From Escherichia coli (GTDB taxonomy: Bacteria > Pseudomonadota > Gammaproteobacteria > Enterobacterales > Enterobacteriaceae), in assembly GCF_013122565.1 (NCBI RefSeq), contig NZ_CP053258.1: a DNA stretch of 64,000 nucleotides. The stretch is one strand, 5' to 3'. Below, one piece after another: positions 31,501 through 34,500 of the stretch. The position numbers are program-made. The stretch's first letter is position 1. Every line of letters begins with the position of its first letter.

Positions 31501-34500
31501 CAGGAAGGGGAAGTGACTGAGTAAGGATTACGTATCTCCCGGTTTTGCCGGGAGTTACATGACCTGAAATTTTGTATTTCATTGCTACATTCATTCAAAC
31601 CACCTGTAACAAAAAGCTGCCTTTGACGATCTATTGCTATAAATAAGTGATCTTTTTTCTTTAATTGCTTATTTATTTTAAAATGGTTAAGTTTTGCTAA
31701 TCATGATGAGCTATTTTTGATAGTTCATCCTGTGGCGTCGCTCTTAAACTTATATTGTAAATGACTTAGATTCAAATGAGATAATAATTTTGTTGACAAT
31801 ATGAGGCGGGAGATGTTTTCTACAAACTTAATACAGAGTAATTATGGTGATTTAAATATTAAAAGCCTGGCTTTCGACTCTTTTAAAGAAAGGCTGCAGT
31901 CTACTATGACAGCACTCACTTTCTTTATATCAACGGGTCAATGTGACTGCGATGAAATAGCAGAATCAAACTTTAATTATATGATTGCCTATATGTCTAA
32001 CATTAACTATGATGCCTCAAAGCCAGGAGCGCCAGCACTTAGTTTTGATACATATCTGCAGGACAATGTTAAATATAGAGTAATAATTAATAATCTTTAT
32101 GGTAGTGAAATTCGGATAAGAGGTATAAATAAAGATTTTATTGGAATGGATGTCACTTCTGTATTTCGCCCAGAAAAGATGACCAATTTGATCAATATAA
32201 AAAACAGGTTGGTTATTCACTATTTAAGGACTATATACTATGAACAAAATTATATACATCCTGTCGGGAGCATTTTTGCTGCGATTCAAAAAAATGAGAG
32301 TCTCCTAAAGTTTCCTTCGATAATATCAATGCTTAATATCAGTCTTCTTTTTAATCCACTAAATCTTCCGGGAATGGGAAGTGGTGTGCTTGAAGATATT
32401 ATGAGTATTCCAGATAGTTCACTTAGAAAACGTCTCGGGTATGAGGTTTTAAGCTTCTCGCTACAGGCACATTCATTGAGCCAGGAATGTATTGATAAGT
32501 TGGACATTTTTTTCGCTGACGATCTGTTTAAATATGAGTCAGTTTGCATCGCCGCGATGGAACATTTAAAAAGTAAGGCAACGGCCCCTATACAAAACGG
32601 ACCGTTGCCAGCATAAGAATTAACGGTGTGCCAGTTCGGCGTCGTCTTCGCTATCCAGAATGGCTTTATCGGTTTGCTTCAGCCACTGGCTGGTCAGCGT
32701 GCCAGCTGTCATCGAGCCACTAACGTTTAGCGCCGTACGGCCCATGTCGATAAGCGGTTCAACGGAGATTAACAGCGCCACCAGGGTTACTGGCAGGCCC
32801 ATCGCAGGCAGCACAATCAGTGCGGCGAAAGTTGCACCACCACCGACACCGGCAACGCCTGCGGAGCTAACGGTAACAATACCGACCAGCGTCGCAATCC
32901 ACATCGGGTCCATCGGGTTAATGCCAACCGTAGGCGCAACCATCACCGCCAGCATCGCCGGATACAAACCGGCACAGCCGTTCTGACCAATGGTTGCACC
33001 GAAAGAGGCGGCGAAACTGGCGATGGATTCAGGAACACCGAGTCGACGCGTTTGTGCTTCCACATTCAGTGGGATAGACGCAGCACTGGAACGGCTGGTA
33101 AAGGCAAACGTCAGAACTGGCCATACCTTACGGAAGTACTTCAGCGGGCTCACGCCATTAATGCCCAGCAAAATGCCATGCACTGCAAACATAATCAGCA
33201 GACCGAGGTAGGACGCGACAACGAAACTTCCCAGTTTGATGATGTCTTGCAGGTTAGAACCTGCAACCACTTTGGTCATCAGCGCCAGAACGCCGTAAGG
33301 GGTCAACTGCATGACCAGGCGAACCAGCTTCATTACCCAGCTTTGCAGGGTATCGATAGCGGCTAAGACGCGTTCACCTTTCGGCGCATCATCCTTCAGC
33401 AGTTTCAGCGCAGCTACACCGAGGAATGCGGCAAAAATTACCACGCTGATAATTGACGTCGGATTGGCTCCGGTCAGATCGGCAAACGGGTTTTTCGGGA
33501 TAAAGGACAAGACCAGCTGCGGAACGCTCAGGTCAGAGACTTTACCAACATAGTTACTTTCAATGGCGTTCAGACGTGCAGTTTCTGCACCACCCTGAAC
33601 CAGACCTTCAGCCGTCAAACCAAACAGGTTGGTGACCAGCACACCGACCAGCGCCGCAATCAGCGTGGTAAACAAAAGCGTACCGATGGTCAGAAAACTG
33701 ATTTTGCCTAACTGAGATGCGTTATGCAGACGGGCAACCGCGCTCAGAATAGAGGCGAAGACTAACGGCATAACGATCATTTGCAGCAGTTGAACATAGC
33801 CGTTACCAACAATGTTAAACCACTGTACAGAATCTTTAAGTACCTGGCTGTCAGAACCATAAATGGTATGCAGGGCAAGGCCAAAAACCACACCCATCAC
33901 CAGACCCACCAGCACTTTTTTCGCCAGACTCCACTGTTTATGGCGGGTCTGAGCCAGCGCAAACAGCAGTACAACGAACACCACGATGTTCGCAATTAAT
34001 GGAAAGTTCATCCCCGTTCTCCTGATCTTATTATTTCTATCACTGCGTAGCAGTCATAGTGTTGGCGCAAGATTAACAGAACTGTGAGCTGGCTCTTATA
34101 TTCAAATGGAATTGCTTATTACAGAAAGGCGATTTTTGCCTTTTTAGTATTCAACCTGATGCTTAATAAGCCGATGAAACTGGATCTGCAAGGTATTGAT
34201 CATTTGCGATGACCAACGGATAGCGCTGTTTTCGGGTAATGAATGTGGCATCCATACCGACCAGACAAATAATGCCATGCAGATAAAACGTTCCAGTTGG
34301 TTGCCCTTTTGGGGAACCAGGATAGGCAAGCGGAAACGCCAGCGGCATGGCCAGAGCAGTGGAACACCGGCGGGTGTCAGCATATCGGCAAGTATGTGGC
34401 TTAAATAACCCAGCACCATTCCTTGTAGCGCATCAGCCGGAATGAACCAGCTTTCAGGAACCTTAAGGTAAAAGGTTGCCAGCAGCGCAAATACCGCCAG

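Follow-up and report, generated by a model that had tools for sequence, protein, structure and literature searches.

Why does a single gene of markedly low G + C content (GC), ydjO, lie between the convergent genes cedA and tcyP of Escherichia coli, and how did it come to be there? We examined this locus in a stretch of 64,000 nucleotides from E. coli (NCBI RefSeq assembly GCF_013122565.1, contig NZ_CP053258.1), referred to below as the window. It is very likely that positions ∼31505 to 32616 constitute a 1.1-kb xenogeneic islet, made up of a control region, one orphan gene, and its own hairpins, that replaced a 46-bp terminator spacer. The islet sits at the junction of cedA and tcyP, and the genes concerned are:

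28817–31078, minus strand: katE, from the open reading frame (ORF) list
31261–31524, plus strand: cedA, matching the Pfam family CedA (PF10729, E = 7e-46)
31813–32616, plus strand: ydjO, from the ORF list, 267 codons and a stop, named in RefSeq in matching genomes
32620–34011, minus strand: tcyP (ydjN), named in RefSeq in matching genomes

The GC of positions 31530 to 32620 is 34.6%, compared to a mean of 50.1% for the window (z = −3.5 among all 1091-bp windows), and the segment of that length with the lowest GC in the entire 64 kb begins at 31511. When followed in 100-bp steps, GC is 0.56 at 31451–31550, drops to 0.27–0.35 across 31551–32400, and reaches 0.51–0.60 from 32551 onward. Values of 0.357 and 0.315 were obtained for the ydjO ORF and for the 276 bp upstream of it, respectively, and the spacer between the cedA stop (31524) and the annotated ydjO ATG (31813) measures 288 bp. 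GC at third codon positions (GC3) is 0.33 in ydjO versus a window mean of 0.53 (standard deviation, 0.067), and a score modeled on the codon adaptation index, with the other window genes as reference, is 0.566 versus a mean of 0.70 (standard deviation, 0.05); by both measures ydjO ranks lowest among 41 long ORFs. These results agree with the initial annotation of this DNA, which had described a sharp fall in GC over ydjO and roughly 280 bp of upstream DNA, together with codon usage unlike that of the neighboring genes. The sliding-window calculation places the islet far below its flanks rather than within a few percent of them, and the gene names given at the outset match Pfam (CedA) and the RefSeq annotation (ydjO and tcyP).

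Of 5426 complete E. coli genomes, 4300 (79%) carry islet DNA (31530–32620) at 90 to 99.8% identity, and 5423 carry cedA. The remaining 1126 E. coli (21%) possess a cedA–tcyP spacer of only 46 bp, as exemplified by the type strain ATCC 11775, a Nissle 1917 derivative, and PMV-1, which we take to be members of phylogroup B2. According to RNA folding, the 46-bp spacer is a single hairpin between an A-run and a T-run, i.e., a bidirectional intrinsic terminator. Outside of E. coli, cedA loci were sampled from one genome per species. Four non-coli Escherichia lineages, E. whittamii among them, have a short spacer (46–48 bp, ∼90% identical), and spacers of 45 to 70 bp with the same architecture occur in most other genera (including Citrobacter, Enterobacter, Kluyvera, Leclercia, and Atlantibacter). 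Outside Escherichia, this architecture was seen at more than 40 loci. The spacer is ∼100 bp in two Salmonella subspecies. Because the short form is shared by the outgroups and several Escherichia lineages, we take it to be ancestral and the AT-rich DNA to be an insertion or replacement. The description of the islet as embedded in core genome holds, but the gene is not universal in the species. The locus of strain HH97 (L001) was first taken as a further empty site and then rejected, as its 106-bp filler is present in only 2 of the 5426 genomes. The filler (L001, 5042–5147), which replaces ydjO, combines a T11 run with an extended C-rich tract (CCCTCCCCACCCCCCCACCCGTCCCCCCCGCCC...) and is possibly an assembly artifact or a rare rearrangement.

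Enlarged cedA–tcyP spacers were also encountered in other genera. They measure 240 to 333 bp in Klebsiella indica, Intestinirhabdus, and another member of the Enterobacteriaceae, and 905 bp in Siccibacter colletis (L049, 4232–5136), where the spacer contains ORFs of 54 and 120 amino acids that, judged by eye only, resemble a HigB/HigA-type toxin–antitoxin pair. Given these enlarged spacers, the convergent junction seems to be a recurrent landing site.

Comparison with the ydjO-less strain PMV-1 (L058) revealed 0 to 2 mismatches per 20 nt along cedA, but 9 in its final 20 nt, and tcyP is identical to that of ydjO-less E. coli from the stop codon inward. This pattern bounds the replaced segment at ∼31505–32616, with sharp breakpoints nearly identical to the limits of 31530–32620 proposed in the initial annotation. 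The left edge falls within cedA:

31505–31524, plus strand: left edge of the replaced segment, comprising the last ∼7 cedA codons (...QEGEVTE), from comparison with PMV-1

The cedA product ends in QEGEV(T/A)E in ydjO-containing E. coli, Escherichia sp. MOD1-EC7003, and E. albertii, and in QENEVEE in all Escherichia with the empty site. The short terminator spacer in the outgroups, in four Escherichia lineages, and in about a fifth of E. coli, along with the sharp breakpoints, strongly supports the horizontal acquisition that had been suggested from base composition. A separate observation is that 31495–31515, at the cedA 3' end (ATCCGCCAGGAAGGGGAAGTG), resembles 32363–32383 inside ydjO (ATCTTCCGGGAATGGGAAGTG) at 17 of 21 positions; this likeness may reflect chance or a trace of the formation of the left junction.

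Each end of the islet carries a hairpin, and a direct repeat lies between them:

31536–31554, plus strand: hairpin CTCCCGG-TTTTG-CCGGGAG directly past the cedA stop (−22.1 kcal/mol, z = −4.9)
31624–31635 and, as second copy, 32517–32528, plus strand: direct repeat TGACGATCT (repeat D4)
32564–32609, minus strand: tcyP hairpin resembling an intrinsic terminator, with U-tract (−22.4 kcal/mol, z = −4.1, then UUACUUUUUAAAU)

No U-tract adjoins the cedA-side hairpin, which presumably forms the cedA 3' end or serves as an insulator. It is also present in HH97; at the corresponding site after cedA, E. albertii carries another, unlike hairpin (z = −4.4). The tcyP-side hairpin overlaps the last ∼14 codons of ydjO and was also flagged by a sequence scan; E. 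albertii exhibits an equivalent tcyP hairpin at the same place despite a different encoded peptide (GPLPA versus EPSRLY). A natural deletion between the TGACGATCT copies was found in Escherichia sp. MOD1-EC7003 (L002), in which the middle of the islet is gone and the hairpins of both ends are retained. Its junction, where ...GACGATCTATT is followed directly by TAAATATGAG..., joins window position ∼31636 to ∼32528 and is that of a microhomology deletion. From the occurrence of end hairpins in both species and their retention in this remnant, we infer that cedA and tcyP now take their 3'-end signals from the insert, which displaced the bidirectional terminator. No Rfam RNA family (E ≤ 1) and no tRNA were detected in 30900–33000.

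The DNA upstream of ydjO contains the following elements:

31525–31812, plus strand: AT-rich ydjO control region (GC 0.32), recognized by composition and as the published ydjO/cedA 'promoter island'
31702–31732, no strand assigned: conserved block, from alignment, with the imperfect palindrome GATGAGCTAT (31705–31714), TTTTG, and ATAGTTCATC (31720–31729)
31761–31788, plus strand: predicted sigma-70 type promoter ATGACT-16-AATAAT, from a consensus scan

On the basis of this predicted promoter, transcription of ydjO would be expected to start near 31795. Genomic systematic evolution of ligands by exponential enrichment (SELEX) with RpoD lists a constitutive ydjO promoter with hexamers identical to the elements at 31761–31788 (PMC3946193), and RpoS SELEX yielded a peak at ydjO (PMC5493296). 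According to the literature, this DNA is thus a target of RNA polymerase holoenzymes in vitro. The SELEX promoter is one of the four sites returned by our scan. Within the conserved block, E. albertii matches at 27 of 31 nt (21 exact), and the remaining upstream DNA cannot be aligned between the two species. Four E. coli alleles show no variation in the block, which folds at −17.6 kcal/mol (z = −3.5). The palindrome could be a candidate operator or an RNA hairpin. The likely ydjO ribosome-binding site is GAGG at 31803–31806. An in-frame ATG at 31801 would extend YdjO to 271 amino acids; RefSeq uses the 267-residue form for K-12 (b1730) and others. Two sequence variants were noted near the start codon. 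The window strain has a perfect TTGACA at 31793–31798, 15 nt before the ydjO ATG (K-12 has TTAACA), with no suitably spaced −10 element downstream of it. In the K-12-like E. coli BHUCD01 (L063, 878–880, equivalent to window 31813–31815), the ydjO start reads ATA where K-12 MG1655 has ATG, a difference due either to a sequencing error or to a start-codon mutation.

YdjO itself matched no family in Pfam, NCBIfam, or PADLOC and gave only noise in PHROGs, and nothing above noise was obtained in Pfam for a divergent allele (P0006) or for the E. albertii homologue. The best result of a sequence profile search against the PDB had E ≥ 1.1, Foldseek against the PDB provided no match at E ≤ 0.001 (template modeling scores of 0.1–0.18), and tblastn against phages returned none. 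Three 'plasmid' matches to ydjO were rejected because the records, at 4.8 to 4.9 Mb, are mislabeled chromosomes; no true plasmid relative was left. When 5.8 billion proteins were searched with the single sequence, YdjO matched E. coli entries only. A profile search of the same proteins yielded 112 matches; all those with a named source are from E. coli, Shigella, or E. albertii, and those without one are fragments of 69 to 100% identity. The full-length E. albertii homologue surfaced only in the profile search; an E. albertii fragment used alone as query gave only one 79-residue fragment. This homologue is intact (257 amino acids, 34% identity over 238 residues) and falls in a cluster with 125 member sequences. 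Its gene occupies the same position between cedA and tcyP, within an equally AT-rich segment (GC 0.31–0.34; 57% nucleotide identity). The E. albertii ydjO allele had no match among the E. coli genomes searched. YdjO is a taxonomically restricted orphan, limited to E. coli/Shigella and E. albertii; the earlier statement that it has no recognizable motif is upheld by these searches, which also uncovered no housekeeping homology. AlphaFold modeling gave a predicted local distance difference test score (pLDDT) of 62 for the full-length protein and 75 (predicted template modeling score, 0.72) for the N-terminal domain, the latter modeled from 4 sequences. YdjO is a soluble protein, and the models, of moderate confidence, show two domains, an α-α-β5-α N-terminal domain and a helical C-terminal domain. 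Our best guess, offered with low confidence, is that YdjO is a non-enzymatic binding or regulatory protein.

The ratio of nonsynonymous to synonymous substitution rates (dN/dS) between E. coli ydjO alleles is 0.15 to 0.27 for all informative pairs (10 pairs), and differences at the three codon positions are distributed 34:29:61, i.e., about twofold higher at the third position than at the others. The 267-codon frame stays open across alleles differing by 24% in protein sequence, and the frame is also open in E. albertii. Taken together, these properties argue for a translated protein under purifying selection and not merely junk DNA. Allelic diversity is unusually high, with synonymous divergence (dS) of 0.15 to 0.5 in ydjO versus 0 to 0.14 in cedA and tcyP, and one allele (L064) is a mosaic that is ∼22% divergent from ∼31765 to ∼32350 and ∼4% divergent thereafter. 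Two homopolymer runs mark recurrent lesions in the gene:

32288–32294, plus strand: A7 run in ydjO, the end of common shortened forms (P0011 and P0012)
32507–32513, plus strand: T7 run in ydjO, a frameshift site (O157:H7 strain F8492)

The shortened forms P0011 (165 amino acids; 2273 member sequences) and P0012 stop exactly at the A7 run, ending in ...AAIQKK and ...AAIQKMRVS. O157:H7 strain F8492 has T6 instead of T7, and its ydjO is annotated as 'frameshifted'. Further lesions include a nonsense codon in one allele, in-frame deletions in several, the MOD1-EC7003 deletion, and insertion sequence (IS) insertions in ydjO of O104:H4 (PMC3486847). Since the gene has been inactivated repeatedly and in many ways, it is accessory and dispensable.

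In the favored account, a segment of ∼34% GC would have entered an Escherichia ancestor at the convergent cedA–tcyP junction, where it would have displaced the ancestral 46-bp spacer with its single bidirectional terminator. The two end hairpins would shield cedA and tcyP from the islet, an H-NS filament on the AT-rich tract would largely shut down the ydjO promoter in the laboratory, and the conserved palindrome, ∼65 to 90 bp upstream of the expected transcription start, may be a site for a regulator that relieves silencing. The role assigned to H-NS draws on published data. The ydjO/cedA spacer is island 1811053_320 (K-12, 320 bp), one of 78 'promoter islands', a class of segments of 300 bp or more that are abnormally dense in promoter-like sites, listed with PlatProm. 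Data sets of Kahramanoglou and of Oshima show H-NS on it, and both Nakamura et al. and Lawrence and Ochman predicted a foreign origin for genes next to it (PMC3661553). An HNS flag is likewise attached to this spacer in the table of RpoD SELEX results (PMC3946193). Given this binding and the AT content, ydjO is probably silenced by H-NS. Derepression has been mentioned for four promoter islands that are not named (PMC3661553).

Most E. coli have the islet, E. albertii has it in very divergent form, and MOD1-EC7003 retains a remnant. E. albertii is usually placed outside of E. coli and the cryptic clades. The shared site, cedA tail, homologous gene, palindrome, and hairpin arm favor a single origin. 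Recombination within the strongly conserved flanks, carrying the islet from one lineage to another, would then account for the patchy distribution. Two independent insertions of related DNA are a possible alternative.

Several results weigh against this account. The islet is absent from lineages between E. albertii and E. coli, so one simple insertion is insufficient. No integrase, tRNA, target duplication, or terminal or flanking repeat was found as a mobility signature, and no donor was found in the proteins, phages, or plasmids searched; a mobility signature is a common feature of acquired islets and not an obligatory one. With regard to H-NS, the island was not credited with binding in the Grainger data (PMC3661553), our literature search uncovered no report of ydjO derepression in an hns mutant, and the islet shows no clear excess of the H-NS motif TCGATAAATT (3 occurrences at ≤2 mismatches versus ∼1.7 expected from the window rate). 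The simple two-hexamer promoter scan likewise returned 4 sites in 1.9 kb versus 4.8 in shuffled sequences. Finally, a microarray study reported that ydjO and ydjN (tcyP) were down-regulated in serum along with the CysB regulon (PMC4145685). That signal may represent real expression or, because ydjO and tcyP converge, antisense read-through from tcyP.

Three other explanations of the locus deserve consideration. The ydjO frame could be decaying or never have been functional, with the AT-rich DNA itself being kept as an H-NS-bound promoter island and terminator spacer. Such a view would accommodate the many broken alleles (A7 and T7 frameshifts, nonsense codon, in-frame deletions, IS insertions, and microhomology deletion), the lack of a known family or fold, the survival of both end hairpins in MOD1-EC7003, and the conservation of the tcyP hairpin between species while the encoded peptide changes. 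We nevertheless regard it as unlikely, for it does not fit with the low dN/dS in every informative pair, the third-position excess, the open 267- and 257-codon frames in divergent alleles and in the E. albertii cluster, or the compact N-terminal domain that AlphaFold modeled confidently from so few sequences; moreover, the 21% of E. coli that thrive with a 46-bp spacer have no need of this DNA as a spacer. The islet might instead be the remnant of a mobile element or conflict system (toxin–antitoxin, phage defense, or effector/immunity), with YdjO as a fast-evolving payload. PADLOC assigned YdjO to none of its families, and the islet holds a single ORF with no partner gene; we consider this origin very improbable.

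It is still harder to credit that ydjO is ancestral to Escherichia and was lost in B2-type E. coli and the cryptic clades, its AT-richness being the result of local mutation bias. The presence of ydjO at the same site and beside the same cedA tail in E. albertii is compatible with loss, as is the existence of a genuine deletion. The spacer of ydjO-less strains, however, is a complete bidirectional terminator rather than a deletion scar and has the architecture common to more than 40 loci of other genera, whereas the true deletion in MOD1-EC7003 looks different in retaining both islet ends. Local bias does not explain a GC3 of 0.33 beside neighbors at 0.53 to 0.58, and neither ydjO-like remnants in short spacers nor a non-Escherichia ydjO homologue at the site was seen. 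Acquisition of a xenogeneic islet remains the explanation we prefer. A bolder extension of it, which we view as doubtful, holds that YdjO represents a new, fast-diversifying, Escherichia-only family that occupies one site, is exchanged by recombination, and is controlled through an operator at 31705–31729 by a dedicated regulator that overrides H-NS. If that were true, the locus would be a compact model of orphan-gene domestication in which the insert brings its promoter, a counter-silencing site, and the terminators of both flanking genes.

Other features of atypical composition occur in the window. A second AT-rich patch (∼39321–41621, minimum GC 0.37) overlaps an intact 632-codon ORF (39955–41853, minus strand, GC 0.39) whose product combines a ShET2 enterotoxin N-terminal domain (PF07906, E = 2e-45) with ankyrin repeats; this presumably corresponds to arpB, a pseudogene in K-12. 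Three other genes have low GC (0.42): those for a DUF1266 protein (92–1123), an AraC-family regulator beside the chb genes (25499–26341), and a degenerate EAL-domain protein (52926–53639). In E. albertii (L067/L068, 1–2340), only a small ORF separates chbG (YdjC family) from cedA; katE, located between these two genes in the window, is absent there.

The core of our interpretation is already known, as ydjO has long been listed as a predicted foreign, H-NS-bound gene of K-12. What is new is the precise delimitation of the islet and its ancestral empty site, the split of E. coli into 79% with and 21% without it, the homologue in E. albertii, the conserved palindrome, and the location of a terminator within the ydjO coding sequence. 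For specialists little changes, and the locus is unsurprising. It does provide a tidy example of how a foreign gene can fit between convergent core genes, by an insert that swaps their shared bidirectional terminator for its own two hairpins, and the conserved palindrome offers a concrete handle in the search for a regulator. YdjO has been described, on the basis of BLASTp, as a signature protein found in all, and only, E. coli/Shigella, and was adopted as a marker for quantitative PCR, with detection of 93% for ydjO versus 100% for yahL (PMC11057252). Our results resemble that description in that no homologue was found outside the clade. They differ in that ydjO is lacking in 1126 of 5426 complete E. 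coli genomes and in that a homologue with 34% identity occupies the corresponding site of E. albertii; both findings undercut its use as a universal and exclusive marker. YahL and YjfZ (DUF2686), named with YdjO in the same study, are similarly ∼265 to 271 amino acids, E. coli-restricted, and uncharacterized. Paralogy of YdjO with these proteins was considered and rejected (BLASTP E = 56 and 2.1; hhalign probability 0.1%; no match to Pfam DUF2686).

Xenogeneic silencing has reportedly been described by Navarre, Lucchini, and Oshima. Among known systems, the ydjO islet is most readily compared to the promoter islands of K-12 and its H-NS-bound xenogeneic genes (Panyukov and Ozoline 2013, PMC3661553), with which it shares strong AT-richness, atypical codon usage, patchiness, and reported H-NS occupancy. 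It differs from the xenogeneic genes in its very small size and in consisting of one gene unaccompanied by mobility genes, and, in contrast to genes at tRNA sites or in large islands, it occupies a convergent terminator spacer.

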